A stretch of 52,534 nt of DNA from a virus (Duplodnaviria > Caudoviricetes), in the IMG/VR virus record IMGVR_UViG_3300034072_000552, positions 1-52,534 of that record; one strand, given 5' to 3'. The notes beneath the pieces are model-generated. The model did not search any database. It was given only the letters and a program-made list of their open reading frames with translations, and was not told where the DNA came from. Shown piece by piece: positions 1,561 through 51,203 of the stretch. The first letter of the stretch is position 1; each line of letters opens with the position of its first letter. The translations under genes and the position numbers were made by a program.

Positions 1561-3289
1561 TTATTTCCACTCAATGAAATACCGTGGTGATGGCGAAGAT
1601 TTTCGCGAGGCGGTCAACCGCTTCAGCAGCGCCATGAAAGACAACGACGAGCATTTTCACGCCTTCCGTGATATCGCGATGGACATGCGCTTTATGCCGG
1701 CAGGCCGCGTTCAATCGGCTATGGGTTCGATACGAGCCACAACCCCTTACAACTGCTATGTCTCGGGGACGATTGAAGACAGCTTCGTTCACGGCGAAGG
1801 CAACATCATGCAGCGCGCTACCGAAGCGGCGGCAACGATGCGGATGGGCGGCGGGATCGGCTACGATTTCAGCAAGCTGCGGCCCAAGGGGGCTCTGATC
1901 AGGAAGCTTCAATCTCATTCCTCCGGCCCGGTCTCCTTCATGGAGGTCTTCGACGCGATTTGCCGTTGCGTCGCCTCCTCTGGGCATCGCCGGGGGGCTC
2001 AAATGGGCGTGTTGCGGGTAGATCACCCGGACATTGAAGAATTTCTCCACGCCAAGCAGAATACGGACAAGCTGACCGGGTTCAATATTTCCATCGCCGT
2101 CACTGACGAGTTCATGGAAGCCGTCCGGGACGGTCGCACCTTCCATCTGCGTTGGGGCGGCGAGGTCTACAAGGAAGTGGACGCCCGCAACCTGTGGGAA
2201 GCCATTATGCGCTCGACATGGGACTGGGCTGAGCCCGGTGTCTTGTTTATCGATACGATCAACAAGATGAACAACCTCTACTATTGCGAGACGCTCGCGG
2301 CGACCAATCCTTGCGGCGAGCAGCCCCTGCCCCCGTTCGGCGCTTGCCTCCTGGGCTCATTCAATCTGGTGAAGTACATCGTCCCCAAGACGGTACGGGC
2401 GCTGGATCAGGCTTCCTGGGACTTCGATTGGGAGCAGCTGCGCGCTGATATCCCGCACGTTGTTCGCGCCATGGACAACGTTGTGGACCGCGCCCGTTAC
2501 CCACTCCCTCAGCAGGAACGCGAGGCCAAGGAAAAGCGTCGCATGGGTCTCGGCGTCACCGGTCTGGCGAATGCCGGCGAAGCCCTTGGGCATGTTTATG
2601 GCTCCCCGGCGTTCCTCGCTTGGACTGAGGAAGTGTTCAAGACTATTGCTGAGGAGAGCTACCGGGCTTCGGCCTTGCTCGCAGCTGAAAAGGGACCGTT
2701 CCCCCTTTTCGATCACCGTTATATGGACGCGGCTTTCATCAAGCAGCTCCCGGACGATGTTCAGGCCCTGATCGAACGTCACGGCATTCGCAACTCCCAT
2801 CTCACGTCTGAAGCCCCGACTGGTACCATCAGTCTTTGCGCCGACAACGTAAGCTCGGGCTGTGAACCGGTCTTCGACTACATCACAGCCCGACCGGTCA
2901 ACACGCCCGCAGGTCAGGAGCTTGTCGAAATCGAAGACTACGGCGTTGCCAATTTCGGCGTCTACGGTCGGCGCGCTTCCGAGGTCACGGCTCAAGAGCA
3001 TATCGCCGTCCTGACGACCGTTCAGCGGTGGGTTGATTCTGCCGTCTCTAAGACCTGTAACATGGACGGGTCGATGAGCTGGGACGATTTCAAGGGGCTC
3101 TACTGGTCGGCGTGGGAAGGCGGCGCGAAGGGTTGCACCACGTTCAACATCGACGGGAAGCGCATGGCCCTCCTCACCGGAAAGAGCGACAAGCCCAAGG
3201 AGGAGGACGGCGGCACCAACTCATACGCCGATCCGGTCCAGACCTCTTGTACAATAGACCCTGAATCAGGGCGGCGGGAATGCGCCTGA
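1535..3289 (+). CDS. nrdJ: Ribonucleotide reductase, class II (adenosylcobalamin-dependent) type
   Basis: PAGR, NCYV, GGGIG, RRGAQM, TNPCGEQPL (thiyl-radical Cys), APTGTIS, C-terminal Cys pair. No beta-subunit gene nearby. Confidence 0.85.
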   Translation: MGPKTRVGDYFHSMKYRGDGEDFREAVNRFSSAMKDNDEHFHAFRDIAMDMRFMPAGRVQSAMGSIRATTPYNCYVSGTIEDSFVHGEGNIMQRATEAAATMRMGGGIGYDFSKLRPKGALIRKLQSHSSGPVSFMEVFDAICRCVASSGHRRGAQMGVLRVDHPDIEEFLHAKQNTDKLTGFNISIAVTDEFMEAVRDGRTFHLRWGGEVYKEVDARNLWEAIMRSTWDWAEPGVLFIDTINKMNNLYYCETLAATNPCGEQPLPPFGACLLGSFNLVKYIVPKTVRALDQASWDFDWEQLRADIPHVVRAMDNVVDRARYPLPQQEREAKEKRRMGLGVTGLANAGEALGHVYGSPAFLAWTEEVFKTIAEESYRASALLAAEKGPFPLFDHRYMDAAFIKQLPDDVQALIERHGIRNSHLTSEAPTGTISLCADNVSSGCEPVFDYITARPVNTPAGQELVEIEDYGVANFGVYGRRASEVTAQEHIAVLTTVQRWVDSAVSKTCNMDGSMSWDDFKGLYWSAWEGGAKGCTTFNIDGKRMALLTGKSDKPKEEDGGTNSYADPVQTSCTIDPESGRRECA

Positions 3290-3299
3290 CGTAAAATTT

Positions 3300-3340
3300 T
3301 GGCCCGGGGCGAATTATTTTGCCCCGGGCCACTTTACTTA
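3300..3340 (+). terminator. Intrinsic terminator-like hairpin after RNR
   Basis: TGGCCCGGGGC-N10-GCCCCGGGCCA stem followed by CTTTACTT. Confidence 0.7.
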
Positions 3341-3405
3341 TGCGGCGATTTGTTTTAAGTTGTTCTTATCCCCGGTACAGACCGGCCTAGAAATGGAGCA
3401 ACAAA
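3333..3405 (+). promoter_or_regulatory. Sigma70-like early promoter with CGGGGATAA box (reverse) and conserved leader
   Basis: TTTACT-N17-TAAGTT, then TTATCCCCG (3366-3374) and AGAAATGGAGCA RBS. Closely matches the leader at 19264-19334. Confidence 0.7.
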
Positions 3406-4392
3406 ATGGTTAGCACTTTCGTAAAAGGTTCCACGACTTTCATCTGCTCTTGCTGTGGCCACAACACGCGTTGGACCGGCGAGCAGGGTACTGATTCCCG
3501 GACTTGCCCCGTATGTTGGGACCTTGCTGGCTTCGAAAATGCTGAACAAGACGATCAGATGACCGAAGCCTATATTGAAGAAGTCCGCAGCCAGTTCAAG
3601 TACCTCAAAGCCAATCGCACCCCTGAGCAGTACGCAAAGGCCCTCCGGTCTTTCGATCTCATCGCTCATTACGTCACCGAAGAAAAGGAGAACACAGAAA
3701 TGACACAGTTCGTAATCATCAACATCGCTGATCTCAAGGTAGACTTCGCCTCCACGCCGGTCGGCAACGAAGGCTTCATTTGCGCTCAGATCGGCGACGA
3801 AGCCGAAGCCCAGCAGCTCTCCGAACTCACCGGCCCGCAGATGGTCGCACTTTATAACACGACTGCAAAGGAGTTGGACACCGGCATCGCCGAAGTCACG
3901 CGCTTCGCCACGAAGGAAGCAGGTGTCAAGCGCCTTTGGGCAAACCTGACCGACCTGGCTGAAGCCCGCAAGGAGAGACTCAAGGAAGTCGTCAAGAAGT
4001 CGATTGTTGAAACCGACACCAAAAACAAGTCGCCTGTACCTCCTTCGTCCATCAAGAAAGCTTCCCCGATTGCCCCCCGTCGCGGCACCGGCATCAATCT
4101 CCCGGCGATGAAGAAGGCGTATCCCTGCCGCGCCGGTTCCAAGCAGGCTATTCTGGTCGATATGCTTTCCCGTCCTCAGGGTGCGACTATGGGTGAGCTC
4201 CTGGAAGCTCTTTCCGGCGGCAAGACCCCCTGGAAGGAAGTCAGCGTCAAGTCCGGTATGAACTGGGATATGAACAAGATTAAGGGCTACGGCATCCGCA
4301 CTGCTAAGCGCGGCGAGGAAGATTGCTATCACCTCGTGCTCCCCGCCGGTTTGTTGGCCCCGATCCCGCACACGGTAAAGACGGGGGCTTGA
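3406..4392 (+). CDS. Early protein: N-terminal Cys-rich Zn-finger-like region plus C-terminal DUF3489-like winged-helix; internal in-frame start at 3700
   Basis: CSCC..H / CPVC at the N-terminus. RAGSKQAILVDMLSRPQGATMGEL..W resembles DUF3489. Second RBS AGAAAAGGAGAAC before ATG 3700. Confidence 0.65.
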   Translation: MVSTFVKGSTTFICSCCGHNTRWTGEQGTDSRTCPVCWDLAGFENAEQDDQMTEAYIEEVRSQFKYLKANRTPEQYAKALRSFDLIAHYVTEEKENTEMTQFVIINIADLKVDFASTPVGNEGFICAQIGDEAEAQQLSELTGPQMVALYNTTAKELDTGIAEVTRFATKEAGVKRLWANLTDLAEARKERLKEVVKKSIVETDTKNKSPVPPSSIKKASPIAPRRGTGINLPAMKKAYPCRAGSKQAILVDMLSRPQGATMGELLEALSGGKTPWKEVSVKSGMNWDMNKIKGYGIRTAKRGEEDCYHLVLPAGLLAPIPHTVKTGA

Positions 4393-4579
4393 TGTCCCAT
4401 AGTCTGAAGCTTGCCCGGGGGCCTCTCCCGGGTTAGCCTAATTCACTGATGGGGCTTTCCCCGTCTCAAGCTTGACAGAAAGTTAGGAGGACGACATGTA
4501 AACGGCAGCTCAGCGCGAGCTTCTAAAGACTGACAAGAGAGTTTGGACCAGAGTGAAATCAATAACCCAGGAGGCCAGT

Positions 4580-4801
4580 ATGCTTCGCCGTTACACCCAC
4601 AGTTATTTCGTCATCTCCATTCTGAGCGTCGTCGCGTTCAGCTTGAGCCTGATTACCTTCAAGCCGACCGCTGAAACCGTCTTTCTCGCTGCCGCCGTCG
4701 CCTCCCTGATCACCGTCGCCCGTGCCTCCCCGGCCCCGGCCCGGTCGTTCCTGAAGCGTCTCCTTGCGCGCATTGATGAGCCGGTTCCGAGTACCATCTG
4801 A
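4580..4801 (+). CDS. Small membrane protein (2 predicted TM segments)
   Basis: AGGAGG RBS, ATG 4580, two hydrophobic stretches. Confidence 0.6.
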   Translation: MLRRYTHSYFVISILSVVAFSLSLITFKPTAETVFLAAAVASLITVARASPAPARSFLKRLLARIDEPVPSTI

Positions 4802-4877
4802 CTGACGCCTGAATGACGAAACCCAGCCCCCGGCTCCCTGAGTGCGGGGGCTGGGGCAGTAGAAAAGGAGCACCAGA

Positions 4878-5228
4878 ATGATCGAAGCCACTGAAGCCGA
4901 TATCGCCCGTTTTTTGAAGATGGTTGACAAGCTTCCTTGCGGTTGCTGGTTCTGGACCGGTGCCCGGTCTCGGGGTAAAGGGAACAAAAAATGGTATGGC
5001 ACTTTCTACGTCAACCGCAAAGTGGGTCGCGTCCGCGCTCACCGGTTCGCGTGTGAAGTGATCGGGAAAAAGGGACCCCTGCCCAGAGGGCACGACCGTG
5101 ACCACAATTGCTTTTTCAGCCTGTGCGTCAACCCGGATTGCCTTGAGTACGTCCCGAAGGAAATCAATCAGCAGCGCCGGATCGACCGGGCGCGCAGAGA
5201 AAAGGAGAACCAATCATGTGTGACTTGA
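4878..5228 (+). CDS. HNH-family endonuclease-like protein
   Basis: CWFWTG..YG.F..RAHRF..DHNC..CVNPDCL pattern typical of phage HNH proteins; AGAAAAGGAGCA RBS. Confidence 0.75.
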   Translation: MIEATEADIARFLKMVDKLPCGCWFWTGARSRGKGNKKWYGTFYVNRKVGRVRAHRFACEVIGKKGPLPRGHDRDHNCFFSLCVNPDCLEYVPKEINQQRRIDRARREKENQSCVT

Positions 5229-5428
5229 GAGCGGGAGACACCGTCACAGCCGTCGCCGGGACAACTTCAGCCTTGTGGGCTGAAGGACGGACAGGAGTGA
5301 TCGCTGAAGTCCGGGACCCGAAACCCTATTCCGGTAACGACTCAAAGAATTTGGTGCGTTGGGGTGATGAGACAATCCTGGTGGGTTTCCGCCCTGATGA
5401 AGTTGAGAAGGTTTATCACAATGCGTGA
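5216..5428 (+). CDS. Hypothetical protein (small SH3/KOW-like beta protein)
   Basis: AAGGAG RBS; GDTV...GRTGVI...VRW pattern. Confidence 0.6.
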   Translation: MCDLRAGDTVTAVAGTTSALWAEGRTGVIAEVRDPKPYSGNDSKNLVRWGDETILVGFRPDEVEKVYHNA

Positions 5429-6239
5429 CGTCATCATAGTAGGCGGGGGCCTCTTCGGCTCCATCGCCGGGGCGGCGCTCCGGGACGCAGGAATGGACGT
5501 GCTGATCATTGACGATGGTCGCCCTCGCTCCGGGTCCCGCGCCGCCGGTTGCCTCATGAAGCCGTCCTGGCTCCAGAAGATGGGCAAGGACAACGTGGAG
5601 CAGTCCTTCAGGCTCCTTGACAGGCTGTACGGCCTTCGCACCGTCTCGCTCAAGGCGGGGCCGGTTACGGTGGGGGCGGAATGGATCAACCCTGACGAGG
5701 TGCTAAATGGTCGCCTCGTTGAATGTTTTCCATATCGGGTCGCAAAGGTCTCTTCCTTTCCCGGAGGAAATCGGGTTCGTCTTAATCCAGACCTAAAACC
5801 GATTGACGCAAAACACGTCATCGTCGCATGCGGCGCGTGGACCCGTCAGCTCATTCACGGCGTCCCGGTCGTCGGCAAGGTTGGCTTGAGCCTGCGTCTC
5901 TTCAAGGAAGTGGAGGACAACCGGATATCTGTTTGGGCTCCGTACAAGCAGCTTGTTCGGTTCTCTCAGGATGGCTTCCATTGGGCCGGGGACGGCACTG
6001 CTATCCTTGAGAAGAATTGGGACGGTCTCCGGGAAGAGCAATCTACTAAGCGCATATCCGATTTCGCCGGTCAAGGTGGCGGTGAGGTTCGGGTCGGCAT
6101 ACGTCCCTTCGCCCAGACAAGCGATCCGGCGGCGCTGGAAGAGGTTGCCCCGGGGCTCTGGAGCCTGACGGGCGGCGGCAAGAATGGAACCGCAGCCGCC
6201 GGATGGGCTGCTGCTAAATTGTTGGAGAGACTGACGTGA
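5421..6239 (+). CDS. FAD-dependent oxidoreductase (DAO/glycine-oxidase-like) of the DNA hypermodification cluster
   Basis: N-terminal Rossmann DVIIVGGGLFG, SRAAGCL, VIVACGAW, GIRP, GGGKNG; adjacent to amino acid:DNA transferase. Confidence 0.8.
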   Translation: MRDVIIVGGGLFGSIAGAALRDAGMDVLIIDDGRPRSGSRAAGCLMKPSWLQKMGKDNVEQSFRLLDRLYGLRTVSLKAGPVTVGAEWINPDEVLNGRLVECFPYRVAKVSSFPGGNRVRLNPDLKPIDAKHVIVACGAWTRQLIHGVPVVGKVGLSLRLFKEVEDNRISVWAPYKQLVRFSQDGFHWAGDGTAILEKNWDGLREEQSTKRISDFAGQGGGEVRVGIRPFAQTSDPAALEEVAPGLWSLTGGGKNGTAAAGWAAAKLLERLT

Positions 6240-6466
6240 GCGAAAAGCACACGCGCATCCGCGTCAAGAGGACTGACGCAACCGGCTATTGGGGATATCT
6301 AGACTTTGGAGAGCTGACCCGGGAAGAAATGGTGAAGACGATCCGCGCCCGCGCTGATTGGCTTCGCAAGGAAGTCGCCGACATCGACGCGACCCGCGAC
6401 GAAGATTTTGAAGTGGACGTGGTGCGCGGTCGCTACGTTCAGAAACACATCAGGAGCGTACCATGA
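6236..6466 (+). CDS. Hypothetical protein
   Basis: Translationally coupled (GTGA / ATGA overlaps) within the modification cluster. Confidence 0.65.
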   Translation: MSEKHTRIRVKRTDATGYWGYLDFGELTREEMVKTIRARADWLRKEVADIDATRDEDFEVDVVRGRYVQKHIRSVP

Positions 6467-7260
6467 GGGACGTCAGTTTAGATAACCCTGTTGAGTGGGG
6501 CCGGCAGCTTATCACCACCAACGACCACGACCCGCTCTATGTCGGCCTGACGGAGTGGGACGTCAAGGGCTCGCGCCTCCGTCGCTTCATGCTTGCCTAC
6601 TGGTGTTGCTATTCGGTCGGCGCGAGCTGGTTTATCTCGCAGCAGTCGGGGTCCCGGTTCTGGGACACGCTCAAGACGGCGGCTGAGAACGTAGAGCCCG
6701 CTCCAATCGGGGGGCGTTGGCCCAGAGCACACGAGCGTCGGCACTGGCGGGGGTCGAAATGCGTGGACAGCGTCCTGTGGCTCCGTGAATCCTACCGCCA
6801 CCCGGAAGAAGCCGTTGTCAGCTTGGAGCGAGCCCGGCACCTCAGTGCTATGTCTGAGCTGATGGACTGGCCTCAGTTCGGCCCTTGGATCGCGTTCAAG
6901 GCCGCCGACATGTTAGAGCGCGTCTTGGGCGTCCCGGTTGAGTTTGAGGATAGCATCCTGACGATGTACAAGGACCCCAAAGAAGGCGCTGAGATGGCGG
7001 CTCCTCTTCTCGGGGTCTCTCATCCTCAAGAGGTTGCCGACCTGATGTGCCGCGCTTATCAGGATATATGGGCCCCGGGGATCGGCGGGGAAGCGGAACG
7101 CGCCTGTAACATCCAGGAGGTTGAGACGGTTTTGTGCAAATGGAAATCAGCCCGGAAGGGCCACTATTTCATCGGCAAGGACACTCAAGATCACCGCCGC
7201 GAGTTGACGGCTTGGGGAGCCCAAGACCTTCTCGCCGTTTACCCAACCGGCAAGGCTTGA
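6463..7260 (+). CDS. Amino acid:DNA transferase (aGPT-Pplase2 / ADDT-like, HhH-glycosylase fold)
   Basis: DHDPLY, ERRHWRG, FGPWIAFKAADMLERV and QEVETVLCKWKS motifs; genomic context. Confidence 0.75.
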   Translation: MRDVSLDNPVEWGRQLITTNDHDPLYVGLTEWDVKGSRLRRFMLAYWCCYSVGASWFISQQSGSRFWDTLKTAAENVEPAPIGGRWPRAHERRHWRGSKCVDSVLWLRESYRHPEEAVVSLERARHLSAMSELMDWPQFGPWIAFKAADMLERVLGVPVEFEDSILTMYKDPKEGAEMAAPLLGVSHPQEVADLMCRAYQDIWAPGIGGEAERACNIQEVETVLCKWKSARKGHYFIGKDTQDHRRELTAWGAQDLLAVYPTGKA

Positions 7261-7285
7261 CTGTTATCCCCGGCGGGGATAAGGT
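7257..7285 (+). promoter_or_regulatory. Promoter with palindromic TTATCCCCG-g-CGGGGATAA box
   Basis: TTGACT-N17-TAAGGT; the perfect 9-bp inverted repeat 7264-7282 fills the spacer. Confidence 0.75.
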
Positions 7286-7310
7286 CTGATTTCAGAAAAG
7301 GAGAACCAAC

Positions 7311-7919
7311 GTGATCATCAACATTCGTGGAACAAACGGGTCTGGTAAGACCCACCTTGCCCGTCAAATGATCGGCGACAATCCGAGCCCGGTTGATCTC
7401 AACAGCTACGACGCCCCGACCAAGAAGGACCCGCAGCGCCGCCTCCGGGTCGAAGGTTACGCTGGCAACGGCGTGGTGGCTATCGGGTCCTACCGTCAAG
7501 GCTGTGGCGGCATGGACACAATCCCGTCTTTCGCGATCCAACAGGGCGCTATACAATACGCTTTGGAACTGGGGTGTGCGGTTGAGCACGTCCTGTGCGA
7601 AGGGGTTCTGGCCTCCACCGTCGCCGGGAGCTGGCTTGAGTTCTTTCAGGACAAGAGCCGGATTCATCACGAGCAGGTCCTCATCGCCTATCTCGACACC
7701 CCGCTGGAGCTGTGCCTTGAGCGCATCCGGGCTCGCCAGATTGCGGCGAAGGGAGAGACCCGGGAAATCAAGGTCGATCTGGTGCGAGACAAGATCAAGG
7801 CGATCAACGCGACCCGTGCCAAGTTCGATGCTGCCGGCATCGACACCGTCAACCTGCGCCACGACCGGGCCTTTGAGGACCTCAAGGCTTACGTTGAGTT
7901 CAAGTCGGGGGAGGTGTGA
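7311..7919 (+). CDS. P-loop nucleotide kinase associated with thymidine hypermodification
   Basis: IINIRGTNGSGKT Walker A, GGMD, LCEG, LDTPLELCLERIRAR lid. Confidence 0.8.
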   Translation: MIINIRGTNGSGKTHLARQMIGDNPSPVDLNSYDAPTKKDPQRRLRVEGYAGNGVVAIGSYRQGCGGMDTIPSFAIQQGAIQYALELGCAVEHVLCEGVLASTVAGSWLEFFQDKSRIHHEQVLIAYLDTPLELCLERIRARQIAAKGETREIKVDLVRDKIKAINATRAKFDAAGIDTVNLRHDRAFEDLKAYVEFKSGEV

Positions 7920-8209
7920 TGTTCAAGGCCGAAGACTTCAGCGCCAAGACCAATTCACAGGTTGCCAAGATCATTTTGCCGCTTGGCGACAAAGTCATCA
8001 AAATGATCTGCGATCTGTCAGAAGACCAGACCGTTATCGAATTGGCTGCTGTATCAGAAATGAGCCCGCTGACCATTGCGGAACGTTTGTTTTGTTCTGC
8101 GACCGGGTACGCTTTGTCAACCCGCCCCGGAGTTACCCAGCCGGAAAAAGCGGGGCACGCAAGCTGCTTCATGACCGGCTTGGGTTACGAGGTAGAAATC
8201 CATGGCTGA
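7919..8209 (+). CDS. Hypothetical protein
   Basis: GGAGG RBS; coupled to both neighbours. Confidence 0.55.
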   Translation: MFKAEDFSAKTNSQVAKIILPLGDKVIKMICDLSEDQTVIELAAVSEMSPLTIAERLFCSATGYALSTRPGVTQPEKAGHASCFMTGLGYEVEIHG

Positions 8210-9179
8210 CCTCAACACAGAACCCCTCTGGAAATGGGTCAACGAGCGCCATGCGATCTATCTGCGCAAGGCGAAACGGGAGAACCCTGAAGCCTTCCTT
8301 CATCAACGCGACACCGGATTTGATCCATTTGGTTTGGGAGACCGACCTAGTGGAAGGTTGACTGAAGACGATATACTTGATGCGTTCCGCTTCTGTAACG
8401 TCTTCCGCGAGCTGGACCGGGTCACGAAGTGGATCAAGGAGCATATCCGGGAGCCCTACGCCGACCACCGGCACCTCTGGTTGATGCTCGCTATCGCCCG
8501 CTACATCAACTGGCCTGAGACGCTTCAATTTCTGAAGCAATCCGGCTACCCTTGGCCAGATTCATCGATCTTCAGCCCGTCAAATCTGGGACGGGCTCTT
8601 GATTGGTGGTCCAAGCAAGGCAAGAAGGTCTACACAGGCGCTTACATGATCCGCGCTGAAAGCAACCCGAAGGCGGAATGGTATAGCTGGACCAAGCAGC
8701 AGTACATCGCCCGGATTGTGATTGGGCGTCTGTGGGAGGATCGCCACGAGTGGGAAGCGATCCTTGAAGACCAACCGGAAGGCGGTCTGACCATGGAAGC
8801 CGTCTGGACCAGGTTCCAGCACCCCCGCTATATCGGTTGGGGACCGTTTATGGCCTATCAGGTCTGTGTTGATTTACGCCACACACATTACCTTCGTAAT
8901 GCGCCTGACATAAATACGTGGGCGGCGGTCGGCCCCGGCTCGCGGCGCGGCCTCAACCGTCTCGCTGGGCGTCCGGTCGATTTCAACCTGTCCCAGGAGC
9001 AGGGGCTGGACGAGATGCGGGCGATCTACGAAGCCCAGGACGCATACCGGGCTCCGTGGTTGCCCCGTGTCGATCTGAGCGACATTCAGAATTGTCTCTG
9101 CGAGACTGACAAATATCTCCGGGTAAAACTCGGGGAGGGAAGGCCCAGAGCGCAATATGTTCCGGGTCGCGGTTACTAA
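8202..9179 (+). CDS. aGPT-Pplase1 / 5-hmdU DNA kinase helical-domain family protein
   Basis: WVNERH, FRFCNVFRELDRVT, GPFMAYQVCVD, GPGSRRGL, DIQNCLCETDKY motifs. Confidence 0.8.
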   Translation: MADLNTEPLWKWVNERHAIYLRKAKRENPEAFLHQRDTGFDPFGLGDRPSGRLTEDDILDAFRFCNVFRELDRVTKWIKEHIREPYADHRHLWLMLAIARYINWPETLQFLKQSGYPWPDSSIFSPSNLGRALDWWSKQGKKVYTGAYMIRAESNPKAEWYSWTKQQYIARIVIGRLWEDRHEWEAILEDQPEGGLTMEAVWTRFQHPRYIGWGPFMAYQVCVDLRHTHYLRNAPDINTWAAVGPGSRRGLNRLAGRPVDFNLSQEQGLDEMRAIYEAQDAYRAPWLPRVDLSDIQNCLCETDKYLRVKLGEGRPRAQYVPGRGY

Positions 9180-9205
9180 AACAACAAGTCCAAGGAGGAC
9201 AATAA

Positions 9206-10306
9206 GTGATCACTATTCAAGCACGCAACGTCAACGACGCCCTCTGGGCCGGGGCTTCGATGATCCGGGAGCACGGCGTTGTCGGCGAAAGCCGTAACGG
9301 CCCGGTTCTGCGGGCTCCCTGCCCCGTCACGACCGTCTATCAGGCCCCTATGGAACGGGTGATGTTCCACCCGGAGCGCGACGCAAACCCGTTCTTCCAT
9401 CTGGTCGAAGCCCTGTGGATGATCGCCGGTCGTAACGACCTCAAGACGCTGACACCTTACGTCTCGAATATGACCAACTTCAGCGATGACGGCGGCAAGA
9501 CACAGCCCGGAGCCTATGGCCACCGGTGGCGGGAGCATTTCCAGCTTGATCAGCTGAATTGGGCTGTGCGTCGCCTGAAGGCCGATCCGAATGACCGGCG
9601 CGTTGTCATCCAGATGTACGACGCCGAAGTGGACCAGTACGCAGCTGACAATGGCGGCAAGGACATACCGTGTAACCTGATGGCCTTGCCGGCTATCAAC
9701 GTCTACGGCTCGCTGGACCTGACGGTGTTCAACCGGTCCAATGATATGGTCTGGGGAGCCTACGGCGCCAACGCGGTTCACTTCTCTGTGCTTCAGGAGT
9801 ATCTGGCGGCTCAGATTGGCGTTCCGGTCGGCACCTACTTCCAGGTATCGAACAATTTCCATGCCTACTTGTCCACGCTCGGGAAGGCCGGTATGGATTG
9901 GCCTTGGGGCAAGTTTGCCCTCGGCGAAGTCGCCGGCACGTTCCGGCCCGACCACTACGGCGCAGGCCGGGTGAAGCCCTTCCCTATGTTCGAGCCCGGT
10001 GAAGACCCGCTCTACATCCTCAACGATATCCAGATGTTTCTGGACGATCCGGCCCGGGTCGACATCCGGTCCCCGTTCCTGCGCAAGATCGCCTGCCCGA
10101 TGGTGATGGCGCATCGCGCCTACAAGGCCGGGAAGAATACAACCGGTATCCAGGACGCCCTGGAAATACTGGAACAGATGCCAGCCGACAACGACTGGAG
10201 AGCGGGGGCCACGCTATGGCTCAAGAACCGGGCGGCGGCGCGCTCCCGGGCAGCAGACGATGGAGTGTCGCATGACGCTGCAAATCAAGATGGAGCTTCT
10301 GGCTGA
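9206..10306 (+). CDS. Thymidylate synthase-family dUMP hydroxymethylase (5-hmdUMP synthesis)
   Basis: NPFFHLVEALW, GAYGHRWR, RRVVI, catalytic DIPCN, RSNDMVWGAYGAN (Asn at the U/C specificity position), NNFHAY. Confidence 0.85.
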   Translation: MITIQARNVNDALWAGASMIREHGVVGESRNGPVLRAPCPVTTVYQAPMERVMFHPERDANPFFHLVEALWMIAGRNDLKTLTPYVSNMTNFSDDGGKTQPGAYGHRWREHFQLDQLNWAVRRLKADPNDRRVVIQMYDAEVDQYAADNGGKDIPCNLMALPAINVYGSLDLTVFNRSNDMVWGAYGANAVHFSVLQEYLAAQIGVPVGTYFQVSNNFHAYLSTLGKAGMDWPWGKFALGEVAGTFRPDHYGAGRVKPFPMFEPGEDPLYILNDIQMFLDDPARVDIRSPFLRKIACPMVMAHRAYKAGKNTTGIQDALEILEQMPADNDWRAGATLWLKNRAAARSRAADDGVSHDAANQDGASG

Positions 10307-10445
10307 GGATCGTCAGCCGAAGAACAGCTTTCGCTATGGGTTCAAGTCCGGTGACGCCGGGGTTGAATCCGTCTACATCAAACGGACGGCCTTCAAGTCG
10401 AAGCCGCCGGAAACCATCACGGTGATCATCAATGAAGACACATAA
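10272..10445 (+). CDS. Small hypothetical protein
   Basis: GGAG RBS before ATG 10272; fills the gap. Confidence 0.55.
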   Translation: MTLQIKMELLAEDRQPKNSFRYGFKSGDAGVESVYIKRTAFKSKPPETITVIINEDT

Positions 10446-10863
10446 GATTTACATTGCGGCGAAATATGCCCAGCGGTTTGCGCTGCGAGAAGTCGCTGCG
10501 AAGCTCCAAGCTGCTGGTTACGAAATCACCGGCGGCTGGATTTGGGATGATGAAGCCGCTGGCGACAACATCCAATATCACGCGATCCGCGACGTGGAAG
10601 ACGTTCGCCGCGCTGACACGCTCGTCTTCATCGGCGAGCCGCAGGCCTCCGAGAACCGGGGCGGGGGGCGCTGGTTTGAGTTCGGCTACGCCCACGCTCT
10701 GGGCCACCGCACCATCGCCGTCTTGAACCTGGACCCGACGAAGGGCGGTCACGATCACCTCCCCCCGGGGCACGAGACGGTCTTCACGGCACTTCCGAAC
10801 GTGGAGCTGGTCACCTCCTGGGATGAGCTGGTTGATCATCTCACGCTGGAGGCCAGCCAATGA
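10432..10863 (+). CDS. Nucleoside 2-deoxyribosyltransferase-like protein
   Basis: KIYIA..., DVEDVRRADTLV, GGGRWFEFGYAHALG motif. Confidence 0.75.
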   Translation: MKTHKIYIAAKYAQRFALREVAAKLQAAGYEITGGWIWDDEAAGDNIQYHAIRDVEDVRRADTLVFIGEPQASENRGGGRWFEFGYAHALGHRTIAVLNLDPTKGGHDHLPPGHETVFTALPNVELVTSWDELVDHLTLEASQ

Positions 10864-11255
10864 ACGCTCACGTTGAACAGGTCGGCGGGGATCACTACGA
10901 GGCGGTTTACCAGCATTGGGATTGGGCTGCTGAAACCGGTCTCGGGTATCTGGAAGGTTGCGCCACCAAATACGTCACCCGCTGGCGCAAGAAGGACGGC
11001 GTTCAGGGCCTCAAGAAGGCAATCACCTATCTCCAGAAGGTAAAAGCATTGGGGATTACTTATTGCCCTCCGGCCTTCCGTCGCCCGATGCGCTCTGATC
11101 ATCGCCGGCACCAGTTTCTGCTGTCCAACGGTATTGACTTGGGCTCCACTGACTCGGTCGTCATCACAATGATCGACTGCTGGATGGACCACGACGATAT
11201 TGACCGGGCGATCCATTATCTGGAAAAGATGATTGATGAGGGCCCAGATGCTTGA
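10860..11255 (+). CDS. DUF3310 (T7 gp1.7/SaV-like) putative nucleotide kinase
   Basis: QVGGDHY...GYLEGCATKYVTRWRKKDGVQGLKKAITYL. Confidence 0.75.
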   Translation: MNAHVEQVGGDHYEAVYQHWDWAAETGLGYLEGCATKYVTRWRKKDGVQGLKKAITYLQKVKALGITYCPPAFRRPMRSDHRRHQFLLSNGIDLGSTDSVVITMIDCWMDHDDIDRAIHYLEKMIDEGPDA

Positions 11256-11529
11256 GAATGTCCTCAAGGTCGTCGGCGCTGAGTTCGGGGTTTCCCGGGC
11301 TCAGCTTCTTTCTGCCACCCGGTCGTCACCGGACGTGGCTTGGGCTCGTCAGGTCGCGATGTGGCTCTACTTCCAAGCCGGGGCTCCGTGTAACTACAGC
11401 CTGGTGGGTCGGGAATTTAACCGGGATCGCACAACCGTTCGCCACGCTGTGGCGAAGGCAAACCGCCTCTTGTCCGATCAGGACGCAGATAGACTGGTGA
11501 CCAATGTTCGCGCAATTACCTCTGTTTGA
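11248..11529 (+). CDS. DnaA domain IV-like helix-turn-helix protein
   Basis: EFGVSRAQLLS..RS..VAWARQVAMWL...SLVGREFNRDRTTVRHAV matches the DnaA C-terminal pattern. Confidence 0.75.
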   Translation: MLENVLKVVGAEFGVSRAQLLSATRSSPDVAWARQVAMWLYFQAGAPCNYSLVGREFNRDRTTVRHAVAKANRLLSDQDADRLVTNVRAITSV

Positions 11530-13555
11530 GCCTGAAAGCTCGTGGACCGCCCCGAACCTGAGAGACCTTCCGACCTCCTGGGGCTCGGGGCGTGTCGCGA
11601 TTGATACGGAAAACCGCGACGAGCTTCTGACCAAACTAGGCCCAGGGGTTCGGCGCGGGGCCTACATTGCCGGCATTTCCGTCGCGATTGAAGACGGTCC
11701 GTGCTTTTACCTCCCGATCCGGCACGCCGGGGGCGGCAACCTTCCTCCTGAGCAAGTGCTTGCCTATCTCCGGGATTGCGCCGCGAAGTTTGACGGCATA
11801 CTGGTCGGGGCCAATCTCGGCTATGATCTTGACTTCCTTGAAGAGGAGGGGATCACCTTTCCGAACGTGAAGTGGTTCCGGGATGTTCAGGTGGCCGACC
11901 CGCTCATCAATGAGCTTCACTACAGCTACAGCCTTGAGTCAATCAGCGAGCGCTGGAACCTTCCCGGCAAGGATGAGACCCTATTGCGCGAATCACTCGC
12001 CGCATACGGTTACACAGGCAAGGCCGCTAAAGGCGGTATCTGGGCACTCCCTGCCAAGCTGGTCGGCCCCTACGGCGAGCAGGACACCCGTCTGCCGCTC
12101 CAAATCCTCCGGCGTCAGGAACGCGAGATTGAAAATCAGGACCTCTGGAAGGTCTTCAATCTCGAAAGCCGAGTGCTCCCGGTTCTCGTCAAGATGCGTC
12201 GCCGGGGCGTGAAGGTCAATCAGGACAAACTGGAGCAGGTTGACGCTTGGTCTCGGGCTGAACAGCAGAAGGCGATTGACGCGGCCAACGCGGTTCATTC
12301 CGGTCGGCGTCTCACCTTTCACGACATTACAAACACTGCTGTCCTCGCCTCCGTCCTCCGTGAGCTAGGGATCGACTTGCCAAAGACTGCGAAGTCAGGC
12401 AAAGACAGCGTCACCGCCAAGGTCCTTGATTCACTCAGTCACCCTATCGGTGATCACCTCCGGCGCGCTAAGAAGATGAGCACACTGCGCTCCACCTTCT
12501 GTGATAGCGTCAAGGAGCACTTAACCAACGGTCGGGCTCACTGTACTTTCAATCAGCTGCGCCGTCAGAAGGACGATGAGAGCGGCGAGACGGAAGGCGC
12601 TGCTTTTGGGCGTTTGAGCTCCGCCAACTTCAACTTCCAAAACCAGCCAGCACGCGACCCGGAGATTGGACCCCTGTGGCGGTCGATCTACGAGCCCGAT
12701 CACGACAAGCCTTGGGCTGCACTCGACTACTCACAGCAGGAGCCCAGACAGGCGGTCAACTCGGCGATAGAGACAGGACCGGCGGCAATCGGACAGGCCG
12801 CGTATGAGAGCGCTTGCGAGGCGGCGCGTCGGTATCGGGAAGACCCCACAATGGACTTCCACGATATGATGACCCGTATGATCAACGGCGACGACTACAA
12901 GGAGCGGGAGGGCGAGAAAGCCTTCAGTCAGAAACGCAAGTATGCCAAAAACATATTTCTGGGGCTATCCTACGGTATGGGCGGCGCGAAGCTCTGCGGT
13001 GATTTGGGTCTGCCGTCCGCTTGGCGTCTGACGTGGAAGGAAGGCCGAGTCAGAAAGCAGAAGGACTTTGAAACCTACGGCGAGGTTGTTGCCAAGGCGA
13101 ACGCGGGCCGGGAAGCCGGTTATGATGTGCGCTATTGGGAATGCGCTGGAACGGAAGGTCAAGCCCTGATCGATATGTTCGACCGTCAGGTGCCGTTCGT
13201 CCGCAAGATGGCCAACTATATGCAGAAGCTCGCTGAGAAGCAGGGCTACATCGAAACAATCGGCGGTCGGCGGTGCCGGTTCCCGACGAAAGATGACGGC
13301 AGCTTCGATTGGCTCCACAAGGCGTTCAACCGCCGCATTCAGGGTGGATCGGCTGACCAGACCAAAATGGCGCTCGTTGAGATGGACGCCGCTGGGCTTT
13401 ATGTCCAACTCCAGGTCCACGATGAAATCGACGGGTCAATGACGCCGGAGGAAGCGCGCTTTGGGGCTGAGATCATGGAGAACGTCCTTCAAACCCACGT
13501 ACCATTTAAGGTCGATGTTGAGCTGGGTGAGAGCTGGGGCGCATCAATGGGATGA
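11504..13555 (+). CDS. polA: DNA polymerase, family A, with 3'-5' exonuclease
   Basis: Exo AIDTE / NLGYD; motif A LDYSQQEPR; motif B KNIFLGLSYGMG; motif C QVHDE. Confidence 0.93.
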   Translation: MFAQLPLFEPESSWTAPNLRDLPTSWGSGRVAIDTENRDELLTKLGPGVRRGAYIAGISVAIEDGPCFYLPIRHAGGGNLPPEQVLAYLRDCAAKFDGILVGANLGYDLDFLEEEGITFPNVKWFRDVQVADPLINELHYSYSLESISERWNLPGKDETLLRESLAAYGYTGKAAKGGIWALPAKLVGPYGEQDTRLPLQILRRQEREIENQDLWKVFNLESRVLPVLVKMRRRGVKVNQDKLEQVDAWSRAEQQKAIDAANAVHSGRRLTFHDITNTAVLASVLRELGIDLPKTAKSGKDSVTAKVLDSLSHPIGDHLRRAKKMSTLRSTFCDSVKEHLTNGRAHCTFNQLRRQKDDESGETEGAAFGRLSSANFNFQNQPARDPEIGPLWRSIYEPDHDKPWAALDYSQQEPRQAVNSAIETGPAAIGQAAYESACEAARRYREDPTMDFHDMMTRMINGDDYKEREGEKAFSQKRKYAKNIFLGLSYGMGGAKLCGDLGLPSAWRLTWKEGRVRKQKDFETYGEVVAKANAGREAGYDVRYWECAGTEGQALIDMFDRQVPFVRKMANYMQKLAEKQGYIETIGGRRCRFPTKDDGSFDWLHKAFNRRIQGGSADQTKMALVEMDAAGLYVQLQVHDEIDGSMTPEEARFGAEIMENVLQTHVPFKVDVELGESWGASMG

Positions 13556-13609: not shown

Positions 13610-14026
13610 ATGGATATATTCTTCAGAGAAGCCCAAGAGGCGGCTAAATACAGCAGGGACCCGTCCACCAAGGTCGGCGCAGTCGTTCACGACAGAGTGG
13701 GTGTAGTTGGCGTTGGTTGGAACCGGTTCCCGAAGGGCGTGCCAGCGGACTGGTGGCACGACCGCGATAAGAAATATCAGGCGGTCGTTCACGCTGAAGC
13801 CGCAGCCTTGATTTCAGCTGGAAGGCTCGCTGCTGGATCAACGCTCACCGTCACGGCGCACCCCTGTAAAGAATGCGCCAAGCTCATTATCGGGTTCGGC
13901 ATCAAATGCGTCGTGTGTCCGCCGGGACCGTGGCGGGACGATCCGGCGGTGATCGAAACCGTGGAAAAGGCGGCTGAGCTGTTCAAGCTCTGTGGCGTTG
14001 AAGTGAGGGCTCCCGATGCCGAGTGA
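13610..14026 (+). CDS. dCMP deaminase
   Basis: SRDPSTKVGAV, GWN, HAE, PCKECAK Zn motif. Confidence 0.9.
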   Translation: MDIFFREAQEAAKYSRDPSTKVGAVVHDRVGVVGVGWNRFPKGVPADWWHDRDKKYQAVVHAEAAALISAGRLAAGSTLTVTAHPCKECAKLIIGFGIKCVVCPPGPWRDDPAVIETVEKAAELFKLCGVEVRAPDAE

Positions 14027-14441
14027 ATCACAGCAGTGGGACGCGCTGCGAGCCCCGATGCTTCATTATAAGCTGGACCCGGTGCGCGTGGAAAACCCCG
14101 CGTTCCCGGGGACCCCGGACGTCAATTTCAAGGAAGGCTGGTTTGAGCTGAAACACGCCGACCGCTGGCCGCCCCGGGGCGGTCCCCTCCGGCTCAAACA
14201 CCCCCCGACCCCTCAGCAGAAGGCGTGGCTGTATCGCCGGTGGCATTCCGGCGGCTTCGTCTTCCTTGTATTGCGGGTCGGCAAGGAATGGTTCGTGTTC
14301 GAAGGCTGGAAGGTTCGGCTGGTCTGGGTCCACGGAACCGACGCGCCGACTGAAGAAACGATAAGGCGCGAATGTTACCGCGTCTTTCAAAACCCGACCG
14401 ATCTTGCCTTCTGGGCTTCTTGTTACAAGAGAACAAAATGA
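14016..14441 (+). CDS. PD-(D/E)xK nuclease (VRR-NUC / Holliday junction resolvase-like)
   Basis: RVEN..PGTPDV....WFELK; Q..W..RR...GG. Confidence 0.75.
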   Translation: MPSESQQWDALRAPMLHYKLDPVRVENPAFPGTPDVNFKEGWFELKHADRWPPRGGPLRLKHPPTPQQKAWLYRRWHSGGFVFLVLRVGKEWFVFEGWKVRLVWVHGTDAPTEETIRRECYRVFQNPTDLAFWASCYKRTK

Positions 14442-16831
14442 CTATCAAGGGGAATACATCCGAATCAATCCAGTTTCTTCAGGCCTGGGCTCCAGAAGAC
14501 AACTGGCAGCTGACCGCTATTGTGCCGGACGGTAAAATCATCACCCAGACGTTCGCCCCCGGCGACGAACGCGCCAAGAACGCTCGTAAATGGATTGACG
14601 ACCGACAAGGCCGTGAAAACATATATTTCACGGTCAACCCGCTGATCCGGGCAATGAACGCGAAGCCCAAGAAGGAAGATATGCGCGGCATGTCGGCCTT
14701 GCACGTCGATATCGACCCACGCCCCGGTGAGGATATGGAGAGCGAGCGCAAGCGCGCCCTCAAGCTGCTGCGCGAGTTCAAGCCTGCCCCGACCGTCATC
14801 ATTGACTCAGGCGGCGGCTATCAGGGCTTCTGGCTGCTGGATCAGGAGCACAAGACTGATGGAGACCTTGACCGGTCGGCTGAGCTGGAGGCATACAATC
14901 TCCAGATCGAAGTGCTGACTCAGGCTGATTCGTGTCACAACATCGACCGCATCATGCGCCTCCCCGGCACGTTGAACGTCCCCAACGCCAAGAAGCGCAA
15001 GAAGGGGCGCGAGGTCTACCTTGCCCGGGTCGTGGAGGCTGAGTGGGATCGGGTCTATTCCCTGAAGCAGTTCACGCCTGCCGCTCGCGTCCAATCCCCC
15101 GGGGGCGGCTCCACTGGCGGCGGTCAGCAGGTGCGGATCAGCGGCAACCTGCCGTCAATCGACCTTGAAGACCTACCCATAACCGTTTCAGCCCGCACAA
15201 AGGCTCTGATTGTCAATGGCGACGATCCCGACGACCCGACGCGGTGGGGCTCCCGATCCGAAGCGACTTGGCACGTGATGTGCGAGCTGGTGCGCAACGG
15301 CTGCTCTGATGATCAGATTGCGGCTATCTTCCTGGACCCGGACTATGGGATCAGTGGACACGTTCTAGATCAGCCCCGGCCCCAGCAATATCTGGGTCGT
15401 CAACTCCAGCGCGCCAAGGAAGACGCAATTGACCCTTGGCTGCGTAAACTCAACGAGGAGCACGCCGTCATTGAGGATATCGGCGGTAAATGCCGCGTGG
15501 TGTCTGAGGTCTTCGACCCGGCCTTGAAGCGGCCCCGGCTTTCGCGTCAATCGTTCGATGACTTCCGCAATCGCTATATGCATATACAGGTTGTTGTGGG
15601 TCAGGATAAGGACGGCAATGACGTGCGCAAGCCCTTGGGCAAGTGGTGGCTCGAAAACCCGAACCGGCGGCAGTACAAGTCAATCGTCTTCGCCCCCGGC
15701 AAGGAGGTTTCTGACAGCTACAACTTGTGGCAGGGCTTCTCGTGCGAGGCCAAGCCGGGGGACTGTGAATTGCTATTGACGCACATCAAGGAGAACGTTT
15801 GCCGGGGCAACGAGGTTCACAGCGAATACATCTTGAACTGGATGGCTCGCGCCGTTCAGACGCCAGATAGCCCCGGCCAAGTTGCGCTCGTGTTGCGAGG
15901 CCGAATGGGTACGGGTAAAGGCGTCGTCTTCAAGCATTTCGGATCGCTCTGGGGCCGGCACTATCTTCACGTGTCCGATCCGAAGCACCTTGTGGGTTCG
16001 TTCAACGCCCACCTTCGGGATTGCGTCGTGTTATTTGCTGACGAAGCCTTCTATGCCGGCGACAAGAAGCACGAAAGCATTATGAAGACGCTGGTCACTG
16101 AAGAAATGATAATGACCGAAAGCAAGGGCGTGGACGCTGAAGCCGCCCCCAACTACGTCCACCTTGGGATGGCATCAAACGATACGTGGGTTGTCCCCGC
16201 CGGGGCCGACGAGCGGCGGTATTGCTTGATTGATGTCGGCGACGGCGCTATGCAGAACGGGGCTTACTTCGCCGCGATCCAGAAGCAGATGGACAATGGG
16301 GGCCGGGAAGCCTTCTTACACTTCCTCGTCACCCGAGACCTGAGCGGCTTCGACGTTCGAAAATTCCCGAAGACCGAAGCCCTTCAGGAGCAGAAGGTGC
16401 TGTCCATGAGCCCAGAGGAGCAGTGGTGGTTCGAAAAGCTCAACGAAGGGCACCTGACTGGCGACGACTGGAAATCTGAAGTCCCTAAGCTGGACCTCCA
16501 GAAGGATTATCTGGCCTATTGCGACCGTCAGAAGATCAACCGCCGCGTTTCCCCGACCGCTCTGGGCAAGTTTCTCAAGCGCGTCCTCCCGGACATCTTC
16601 CCGCAGACCTTCCAGAAGGTAGCTGAGGTGGAGGTTATGGACCGCTTTGGACACCCAGTCTACCGGAAGTCCAAGATTTGGTTCTACGGCTTCCCGGCGC
16701 TGGACAGGGCTCGCGCTCACTTTGATGAGCGGTTCGGTGGTCCATATCAGTGGCCGAACGTGAATGAGGCCATGGACGAGACGGAAATGCAGGGTCAGCT
16801 CGGGGAGACCGAAAGTGACACGCCGTTTTGA
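14438..16831 (+). CDS. Primase-helicase (RepB/prim-pol-like N-terminus, D5/SF3-like helicase C-terminus)
   Basis: HVDID, SGGGYQGFW, RIMRLPGT; helicase GRMGTGKG, FADE, ASN, ERRY. Confidence 0.85.
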   Translation: MTIKGNTSESIQFLQAWAPEDNWQLTAIVPDGKIITQTFAPGDERAKNARKWIDDRQGRENIYFTVNPLIRAMNAKPKKEDMRGMSALHVDIDPRPGEDMESERKRALKLLREFKPAPTVIIDSGGGYQGFWLLDQEHKTDGDLDRSAELEAYNLQIEVLTQADSCHNIDRIMRLPGTLNVPNAKKRKKGREVYLARVVEAEWDRVYSLKQFTPAARVQSPGGGSTGGGQQVRISGNLPSIDLEDLPITVSARTKALIVNGDDPDDPTRWGSRSEATWHVMCELVRNGCSDDQIAAIFLDPDYGISGHVLDQPRPQQYLGRQLQRAKEDAIDPWLRKLNEEHAVIEDIGGKCRVVSEVFDPALKRPRLSRQSFDDFRNRYMHIQVVVGQDKDGNDVRKPLGKWWLENPNRRQYKSIVFAPGKEVSDSYNLWQGFSCEAKPGDCELLLTHIKENVCRGNEVHSEYILNWMARAVQTPDSPGQVALVLRGRMGTGKGVVFKHFGSLWGRHYLHVSDPKHLVGSFNAHLRDCVVLFADEAFYAGDKKHESIMKTLVTEEMIMTESKGVDAEAAPNYVHLGMASNDTWVVPAGADERRYCLIDVGDGAMQNGAYFAAIQKQMDNGGREAFLHFLVTRDLSGFDVRKFPKTEALQEQKVLSMSPEEQWWFEKLNEGHLTGDDWKSEVPKLDLQKDYLAYCDRQKINRRVSPTALGKFLKRVLPDIFPQTFQKVAEVEVMDRFGHPVYRKSKIWFYGFPALDRARAHFDERFGGPYQWPNVNEAMDETEMQGQLGETESDTPF

Positions 16832-20005: not shown

Positions 20006-20076
20006 TCACTGCTCGGAATTGTCGTTGTTGGAGCTATCCCGCTGGCAGCGGGAAGCGTGGAGAAGGATGTACGGCC

Positions 20077-51089: not shown

Positions 51090-51203
51090 GACGCGACAGC
51101 GTCTGTCAGTTCCCGTCACCTGGGTGAGTGGTGAGGGTCAACCGCTGGTTGAGCAGGGCTAGAGCCGGTGCCCGGAAACCGCCTCATTTTAGGAGAAGCC
51201 AAA

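Follow-up and report, generated by a model that had tools for sequence, protein, structure and literature searches.

A phage thymidine hypermodification cluster with a flavin oxidase and no recognisable acetyltransferase, predicted to end at 5-aminomethyl-2'-deoxyuridine

The virus record IMGVR_UViG_3300034072_000552 (Caudoviricetes), analysed here over its whole length of 52,534 bases and referred to below as the window, contains a thymidine hypermodification cluster at positions 5421-11255. The cluster is interpreted, with moderate confidence, as a post-replicative system of the type described in phage PaMx11 that lacks the capping step and ends at 5-aminomethyl-2'-deoxyuridine (5-NmdU). There is high confidence in the narrower prediction that the pathway gets as far as 5-NmdU. 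The system is the PaMx11 pathway without its final enzyme, set in another phage backbone. An earlier sequence-only reading of the window had proposed a PaMx11-like glycine and flavin route without an acetyltransferase, ending at 5-NmdU or at an uncharacterised base, and this proposal is supported by the functional residues conserved in the enzymes, by a closed genome that lacks a recognisable acetyltransferase of the GNAT family and by three related genomes that likewise lack one. The core genes of the cluster, with matches to Pfam and other families, are as follows.

5421-6239, + strand: gp47-like flavin adenine dinucleotide (FAD) oxidoreductase; PF01266 (DAO), E 2.2e-12
6236-6466, + strand: orf76, open reading frame (ORF) adjoining the transferase gene upstream; no Pfam or PHROG family
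6463-7260, + strand: amino acid:DNA transferase (aGPT-Pplase2); PF18724, E 2.1e-20
7311-7919, + strand: P-loop 5-hydroxymethyl-2'-deoxyuridine (5-hmdU) DNA kinase (5-HMUDK); PF18748, E 8.1e-9, 35.7 bits (cut-off 27)
7916/7919-8209, + strand: orf97, between the kinase and Pplase1 genes; no Pfam or PHROG family
8202-9179, + strand: aGPT-Pplase1, currently named HMUDK_hel; PF18723, E 1.9e-43
9206-10306, + strand: thymidylate synthase (TS)-family pyrimidine hydroxymethylase; PF00303, E 5.8e-17; phrog_5131, E 6.7e-118

Matches to Pfam and the Protein Data Bank (PDB) placed the FAD enzyme, transferase, P-loop kinase, Pplase1-like and TS-family genes on the + strand at or near the positions first assigned to them. 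The three genes by which Lee et al. (2018, 2021) recognise systems that depend on 5-phosphomethyl-2'-deoxyuridine (5-PmdU) all lie within 6463-10306. The cluster is not a chance grouping: its genes and their order are found again in PaMx11 and in the majority of the 37 IMG/VR loci that were fetched by alignment of FAD homologues.

In PaMx11 the genes run in the order gp46 transferase, gp47 FAD enzyme, gp48 acetyltransferase, gp49 kinase, gp50 Pplase1, gp51 TS homologue, PolA and dCMP deaminase. As described by Lee et al. (2021, PMC8989533), gp46 together with 5-HMUDK yields Nalpha-glycinylthymidine (Nalpha-GlyT; 315 u), gp47 converts Nalpha-GlyT to a nucleoside of 257 u that was assigned as 5-NmdU, and gp48 acetylates 5-NmdU to 5-acetylaminomethyl-2'-deoxyuridine (5-AcNmdU; 299 u). 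Like PaMx11, the window has every enzyme up to 5-NmdU, namely the hydroxymethylase, the kinase, the glycine-type transferase and the FAD oxidase with its caging residues, and genes for PolA and dCMP deaminase follow in both. Unlike PaMx11, it has no gp48-like GNAT anywhere in its genome. The order also differs (FAD-orf76-transferase in the window versus transferase-FAD-GNAT in PaMx11), the window has the extra orf97 between the kinase and Pplase1 genes, and a nucleoside deoxyribosyltransferase (NDT)-like gene occupies the position of the HD-domain gp52 gene. The backbone of the window resembles those of Pseudanabaena phage Pam3 and a group of Rhizobium phages, whereas PaMx11 has that of the Mesyanzhinovviridae.

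The FAD protein matched PDB 8z2o, the PaMx11 "flavin-dependent lyase," over its full length (residues 2-271; E 3e-63) and was 42% identical to PaMx11 gp47, also named NGTO, by blastp. The ATG at 5421 is the correct start of the gene, because the homologues all start with MRDV or MKTDV there. In gp47, the flipped base is caged by W51, Y180, Q182 and K268, and R242 probably contacts the carboxylate of glycine (Wen et al. 2024, PMC11472151). The window has all five, as do 29 of the 31 aligned FAD sequences, a set that includes PaMx11 gp47 and the window itself, and the window also keeps the gp47 positions K48, P179, N205 and R210. On this basis the product of 5421-6239 is predicted to be a FAD-dependent Nalpha-GlyT oxidase. 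Such a reaction would resemble that of the FAD domain of tRNA MnmC (cmnm5U to nm5U), which likewise uses FAD to cleave the N-Calpha bond of a glycine attached through a 5-methyl group to uracil, leaving an aminomethyl group. Both proteins belong to the Pfam family DAO, and Lee et al. link gp47 to MnmC1 (PMC8989533). The substrates differ, double-stranded DNA for the window enzyme versus U34 of tRNA for MnmC, and no MnmC-type methyltransferase domain follows in the window (PF13649, 0 matches).

The transferase matched PDB 8z2m (PaMx11 gp46; E 1.5e-53), of which it is a homologue over the full length, and 25qc (E 2.1e-52). It was 38% identical to gp46 by blastp, and 38-39% identical to characterised glycine transferases by tblastn. 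According to Li et al. (PMC13458397), the glycine pocket of YuA Pplase2 consists of D24, E96, K159, K248, Y257 and D262, K248 and Y257 grip the glycine carboxylate and decide the donor, and the substitutions G227K/D238Y turned a diamine transferase into a glycine transferase. In an alignment numbered by the YuA reference, designated A2, the window transferase keeps the catalytic C247 and all six pocket residues. K248 and Y257 were present in 9/9 sequences of the glycine set (YuA, M6, PaMx11, the window, L004, L005, TM26, I65 and Pam3; L followed by a number denotes a fetched locus). The residue test discriminates, because positions 248 and 257 hold other residues in the enzymes of PhiW-14 and SH-Ab 15599, which use putrescine and diaminopropane, respectively. 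The window transferase is predicted from these residues to be glycine specific.

The kinase was 33% identical to PaMx11 gp49 (blastp, E 4.6e-20), which has been demonstrated to phosphorylate 5-hmdU in DNA (PMC8989533, Table 1). The name of its family in PHROGs is "terminase small subunit," and the PaMx11 record names gp49 likewise. The Pplase1 protein was 33% identical to PaMx11 gp50 (blastp). In phage M6, reactions from which gp52, gp53 and gp55 were omitted still yielded Nalpha-GlyT; gp55 would be the Pplase1 homologue, judging from gene order. The TS-family enzyme was 48% identical to PaMx11 gp51 (blastp), and its best PDB match was MilA, a CMP 5-hydroxymethylase (E 8.8e-18), with true thymidylate synthases at about 1e-7. 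When aligned to MilA, the enzyme keeps the nucleophilic Cys, and it has Asn where the cytosine-specific MilA has Asp; the motif NRSNDMVWGAYGAN was found in its translation. An Asn favouring dUMP had been pointed out in the sequence-only reading, and its position opposite the MilA Asp agrees with that view. The enzyme is predicted to be a dUMP hydroxymethylase.

PaMx11 gp48 is an ordinary GNAT (PF00583, E 7.5e-15), and six-frame searches of the window genome at E <= 10 returned 0 matches to gp48, PF00583 or PF13508. The same searches returned 0 matches to radical S-adenosylmethionine (SAM) enzymes (PF04055), PALP (PF00291), Amidoligase_2 (PF12224) and Methyltransf_25 (PF13649). Control genomes gave matches in 14/14 cases for each Pfam family searched except Amidoligase_2, for which they did so in 3/14; the search with the gp48 protein was run without controls, and an empty result of that kind shows nothing by itself. 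These results bear out the earlier view that the genome has no recognisable GNAT, pyridoxal phosphate (PLP) or radical-SAM enzyme. The PLP decarboxylase and radical-SAM isomerase that stand beside the transferase in M6/YuA-type clusters were likewise not found (PF00291 and PF04055, six frames). A GNAT fold hidden among the small ORFs had been suggested as a point to check, and when all 267 six-frame ORFs of at least 60 amino acids (aa) were compared by hhalign with a profile built from seven gp48-family GNATs, the highest probability was 6.2%. Two GNATs kept out of the profile scored 100% in the same comparison; these controls are fairly close relatives and have little bearing on very divergent GNATs. 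The cluster itself has no space for another enzyme, the gaps inside it being about 50, 26 and 125 nucleotides (nt). Partners of the Amidoligase_2-like and LMWPc-like kinds that accompany FAD genes elsewhere were not found in the cluster: PF12224 gave 0 matches and, with gaps of at most about 125 nt, there is no space for such genes (PF01451 was not searched separately).

These negative results apply to a whole genome. The window is the entire virus record, 96% complete by the CheckV estimate and with zero N. Positions 52338-52534 repeat positions 1-197, with 196/197 nt identical by blastn, and because of this 197-nt terminal repeat the genome is treated as closed, at about 52.3 kb, in a record classed as "linear." All credible genes are on the + strand.

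Three related genomes share synteny with the window across the whole replication module and have the FAD gene: G001 (98% complete), G002 (100% complete, with terminal repeats) and the cultured Rhizobium phage RHph_TM26 (MN988465; complete, circular). None of the three had a PF00583 match. Identity to the window in TM26, G001 and G002, respectively, was 73%, 88% and 70% for the FAD protein, 67%, 70% and 72% for the transferase, and 71%, 94% and 83% for PolA; the TerL protein of TM26 was 67% identical.

RHph_I65, RHph_I72 and Pam3 have the backbone of the window and the same kinase, Pplase1 and TS-family genes, and the transferases of I65 and Pam3 are 60-64% identical to that of the window and keep K248 and Y257. 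However, I65 and Pam3 have, instead of the FAD gene, a gene for a radical-SAM-like protein of 458-469 aa with a CxxxCxxC motif. The 469-aa protein of I65 is 67% identical to Pam3 gp46, which is annotated as a DNA repair photolyase. In I65 a PLP-annotated protein is encoded just upstream, across the circular start, and in Pam3 the "threonine dehydratase" and photolyase genes are next to the transferase gene. The exchanged genes are located as follows.

L041 (RHph_I65): 428-1837
L055: 41014-41898
L042 (Pam3): 3055-3888 and 4373-5749

The FAD gene was the sole one of 48 window genes present in G001, G002 and TM26 yet absent from I65, and a tblastn comparison of the PLP-annotated and radical-SAM-like genes of I65 with the window, G001, G002 and TM26 gave no match. 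Because the FAD gene alone tracks the FAD-type genomes and the I65 genes are unmatched there, the tailoring cassette is regarded as swapped as a unit between near relatives of the same host genus, and nothing else moves with the FAD gene. The enzyme set of I65 and Pam3 is that of M6 (PLP plus radical SAM), which passes through Nalpha-GlyT. By analogy, the product in I65 and Pam3 is predicted to be 5-aminoethyl-2'-deoxyuridine (5-NedU) and not 5-NmdU.

Two further genes were seen in the cultured relatives. A 163-aa AAA_33 P-loop protein, annotated as polynucleotide kinase/phosphatase, is encoded just upstream of the transferase gene at L003 1228-1719 (TM26) and L041 1834-2322 (I65). In TM26 it takes the place that orf76 has in the window, and it is not encoded by the window, G001 or G002. 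TM26 alone has a 170-aa "putative methyltransferase" (L054 1120-1632, which is TM26 51120-51632) a few kb upstream of the FAD gene. Activity of that enzyme on the amine would set TM26 apart from the window, a point of importance where TM26 serves as a stand-in.

Among the 37 IMG/VR loci with FAD homologues, PF00583 matches were found in 13 records (10 of them above the cut-off), and such a match was seen in 6 of the 9 records with a completeness of 90% or more. In eight loci a gp48-like GNAT gene follows the FAD gene (L007, which is PaMx11, L014, L015, L016, L024, L025, L026 and L037). Elsewhere an Amidoligase_2-like gene (9 loci) and an LMWPc-like gene (11 loci) lie between the FAD and kinase genes. 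Compact clusters without an extra enzyme occur in the window, TM26, L004, L005, L021, L027/L033, L035 and possibly L034. L034 has a borderline PF00583 match about 3 kb away, and in L021, a 120-kb record, a GNAT is encoded at a distance from the cluster. A third set of FAD partners comprises a protein of about 330 aa that resembles Amidoligase_2 (E 0.0015, below the cut-off) and a phosphatase-like LMWPc protein of about 160 aa (E 4.9e-19), an arrangement that suggests an uncharacterised acylated aminomethyl-dU as the product.

L011: 10798-11793 and 12103-12585, amidoligase/LMWPc set
L009, L017, L019, L020, L022, L023, L028 and L029: also with this set

In a FAD tree of 31 rows, from which near-duplicate or truncated sequences were omitted (L012, L018, L025, L030, L032, L033, L038 and L040), the window, L004, TM26 and L005 formed one clade with an SH-aLRT support of 100. 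This clade was placed beside the PaMx11/Epa5 pair with a support of 93, which is under the threshold of 95. The partner types were scattered on the tree, with 14 changes compared to a minimum of 4. A separate arrangement was observed in L006, where three tandem paralogues of the P-loop kinase (14148-16028) follow the transferase gene in a complete 73-kb IMG/VR genome without a GNAT match.

Both small ORFs of the cluster are real genes. In the FAD-less RHph_I65, the corresponding position is occupied by a 75-aa ORF with 61% identity to orf76; orf76 also has a database relative with 89% identity and falls into four database clusters, and it is missing from the FAD-type genomes G001, G002 and TM26. 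Counterparts of orf97 are at the same position in L004 (81% identity), TM26 (30%) and I65 (27%), and there is none in the FAD-type G002. A profile search for orf97 recovered 5 representative clusters among 1.84 billion proteins, and its family is tiny, lineage specific and uninformative. The sequence-only reading had considered both ORFs as possible accessory factors, a suggestion that does not fit the presence of orf76 in the FAD-less I65 or the lack of orf97 in the FAD-type G002. The AF2 models, both of low confidence, show a hairpin-helix-hairpin for orf76 (pLDDT 63) and a three-helix bundle for orf97 (pLDDT 63.5). Neither model had a Foldseek PDB match at E <= 0.001, and the weak rows of histone-like and protein-L-like kind do not count as evidence. 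By size and predicted fold, neither protein is a plausible acetyltransferase. Several candidate relationships were rejected: orf97 and orf76 are unrelated to gp48 (BLASTP E 2.3 and 6.5), the best ESM Atlas score of orf97 (0.81) is within the range reached by shuffled proteins, and hhalign probabilities of orf97 with the co-positioned 90-aa ORF of L021 and with Pam3 gp48 were below 1%.

The reactions can be arranged into a putative pathway. Before replication, dCMP deaminase would supply dUMP, from which the TS-family enzyme would make 5-hmdUMP; a MazG-like pyrophosphohydrolase would probably clear dTTP and dUTP, and the phage PolA would incorporate 5-hmdU into DNA. On the DNA, as suggested by homology and conserved functional residues, the P-loop kinase would phosphorylate 5-hmdU to 5-PmdU and the transferase would exchange the phosphate for glycine to give Nalpha-GlyT. 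The FAD enzyme would then oxidise the N-Calpha bond, hydrolysis of the imine would release 5-NmdU and glyoxylate, and O2 would reoxidise FADH2. Because the genome encodes no recognisable amine-modifying enzyme, free cationic 5-NmdU is the predicted mature base, on a fraction of thymidines, with nothing presumed to act after the oxidase.

Several points weigh against this interpretation. Every assigned function derives from homology, at 33-48% identity to PaMx11 proteins, and the native base of PaMx11 itself was never confirmed on virion DNA in the work described in PMC8989533. Four residues with which gp47 contacts DNA, at its backbone, are changed in the window enzyme (F52L, R181K, K202L and Y244F). 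PF13649 was the sole methyltransferase family among the six-frame searches, and the ORF-by-ORF Pfam scan covered the genome outside the structural genes at 23-46 kb. About 20 early ORFs belong to no family, and one of them could encode a novel amine-modifying enzyme; none of them co-varies with the FAD gene, and the larger orphans at 17784-18206 and 19992-20507 are common only to the closest relative. The 171-aa ORF at 19992-20507 had no usable ESM Atlas match. A host acetyltransferase may also have a role, and no role has been assigned to the conserved Pplase1 protein.

It is considered doubtful that 5-NmdU is only an intermediate and that an orphan early ORF, orf76, orf97, Pplase1 or a host enzyme extends the amine to 5-AcNmdU or to an uncharacterised derivative. 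The amine seems to undergo further processing in all other clusters with a FAD gene, by the count of GNAT, Amidoligase_2-like and LMWPc-like loci given above, and the window has many early ORFs without an assignable family to which such a step could be attributed. However, the six-frame searches for GNAT, amidoligase, PALP, radical-SAM and Methyltransf_25 proteins were all empty, no ORF exceeded 6.2% in the hhalign comparison, and, among G001, G002, TM26 and I65, no gene apart from the FAD gene itself varies with the FAD state. The distribution of orf76 and orf97 does not follow the FAD gene either, and both proteins are too small for a GNAT and have helical or hairpin-like models. Pplase1 cannot account for a lineage-specific step, because it is present in every other cluster type among the loci compared.

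It also seems improbable that the pathway stalls at Nalpha-GlyT, or at a mixture dominated by Nalpha-GlyT, with a FAD enzyme that is inefficient, limited by O2 in the habitat of the host or catalyses a reaction other than N-Calpha cleavage. The reaction scheme in PMC11472151 requires O2 for the recycling of FADH2, the best DNA holder of the window among public sequencing runs carries the label subsurface metagenome, and four DNA-contact residues are not those of gp47. Yet the cage and carboxylate-binding residues of the oxidase are intact, and the gene has been kept at 70-88% identity in three related genomes. Furthermore, it is exchanged as a unit against the PLP and radical-SAM genes in the siblings, which argues for a working tailoring module. 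Very little weight is given to the idea that the transferase uses a donor other than glycine, with an intermediate and possibly a product that depart from the PaMx11 scheme. The identity of just 38-39% to characterised glycine transferases would allow for this, and the family probably takes many more donors (PMC13458397). Against it, K248, Y257 and the pocket residues D24, E96, K159 and D262 are all kept, and the transferases that are 60-64% identical sit in M6-type clusters with radical-SAM-like and PLP-annotated genes; moreover, 5-NmdU would result whichever Nalpha-linked amino acid was oxidatively cleaved.

The genes downstream of the cluster core include several with possible roles in the nucleotide pool or in replication.

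10432-10863, + strand: NDT-like/DUF4406-like protein; PF05014, 21.4 bits, under the 28.8 cut-off
10860-11255, + strand: DUF3310 protein; PF11753, 22.4 bits, slightly under the cut-off of 24; phrog_5839, E 3.5e-28
11233-11529, + strand: DnaA-C helix-turn-helix protein; Bac_DnaA_C
11504-13555, + strand: PolA; DNA_pol_A
13610-14026, + strand: dCMP deaminase; PF00383, E 7.6e-18
17083-17871, + strand: MazG-like all-alpha NTP pyrophosphohydrolase; PRA-PH, E 5.1e-5; PDB 3nl9, E 1.3e-5

The NDT-like, DUF3310, dCMP deaminase and MazG-like genes named in the sequence-only reading are thus present, with PF05014 and PF11753 scores below their cut-offs. The NDT-like protein has a 67%-identical homologue in TM26 that is annotated DUF4406, no PDB sequence match and no counterpart in G002 or I65; its role in the nucleotide pool is putative. 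The DUF3310 protein, present in 4/4 relatives, has weaker matches to PHROGs labelled nucleotide kinase and is possibly a nucleotide kinase. In phage SH-Ab 15599, gp18 is a dTTPase/dUTPase (PMC13458397), and by analogy the MazG-like protein is a candidate for an enzyme that clears dTTP and dUTP.

Elsewhere in the genome, 50151-52076 matched Pfam families of the Pam3 gp32-, gp33- and gp34-like kinds, and a RecD-like helicase gene (30-1328) begins within the terminal repeat. There was no close known phage at the DNA level, the best megablast match spanning 12% of the cluster query, and no RNA run was listed among the public sequencing runs that contain window DNA, all of which are stored as contigs. 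The 819-aa protein encoded at 14372-16831 matches DUF5906, RepB-primase and VapE-like families and so resembles a primase-helicase; the homologous proteins of TM26 and I65 (68-69% identical) are annotated "integrase protein" with attL/attR, an apparent misannotation. Between the HNH gene and the FAD gene is a 70-aa ORF (5216-5428) that overlaps the start of the FAD gene by 8 nt. A tblastn search of the four related genomes gave no match to it, it belongs to no family in Pfam or PHROGs, and it may be an insertion or a non-gene. A promoter scan found promoter-like sites at no higher frequency than in shuffled sequences. A consensus scan alone located one terminator-like feature, which could be an internal attenuator.

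7264-7282, + strand: 8-bp GC-rich hairpin with a T-rich tail, right after the transferase stop and before the kinase gene

The discussion of PMC11472151 lists five thymidine hypermodifications made via 5-PmdU, and dapT was added as the sixth in 2026 (PMC13458397). In our literature search 5-NmdU was met only as the product of the PaMx11 gp47 reaction, never as a native base, and no paper was found on DNA modification in RHph phages or Pam3. Lee et al. mention contigs from metagenomes in which flavin oxidoreductases occur together with other genes (PMC8989533), and contigs with the FAD gene and without an acetyltransferase may already be drawn in Figure 2 of that paper (sequences 17-21) or included in its contig lists. 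The DNA of the phage probably holds a positively charged base that has so far been unreported in nature. Chances are about even for the wider prediction that virions of this phage and its relatives, including RHph_TM26, carry native 5-NmdU and that the siblings RHph_I65 and RHph_I72, in which the FAD gene is swapped for PLP and radical-SAM genes, make a different base. Because RHph_TM26 and RHph_I65 are cultured, this prediction can be tested (nucleosides of 257 u for 5-NmdU versus 271 u for 5-NedU).

If the prediction is correct, 5-NmdU, so far only an in vitro intermediate, would rank as the smallest of the cationic thymine hypermodifications and would correspond in DNA to the nm5U of tRNA. 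The short primary amine in the major groove would provide a charge-bearing and chemically reactive handle, with relevance to how the DNA is packaged, how it can be labelled enzymatically or chemically and how well it withstands restriction and other nucleases. The comparison points to modular tailoring, in which a glycinylated intermediate on one backbone is passed to a FAD oxidase or to PLP and radical-SAM enzymes, and elsewhere to a FAD enzyme accompanied by a GNAT or an amidoligase-like protein. The window and its siblings would then represent a natural polymorphism of DNA chemistry on a single phage backbone.

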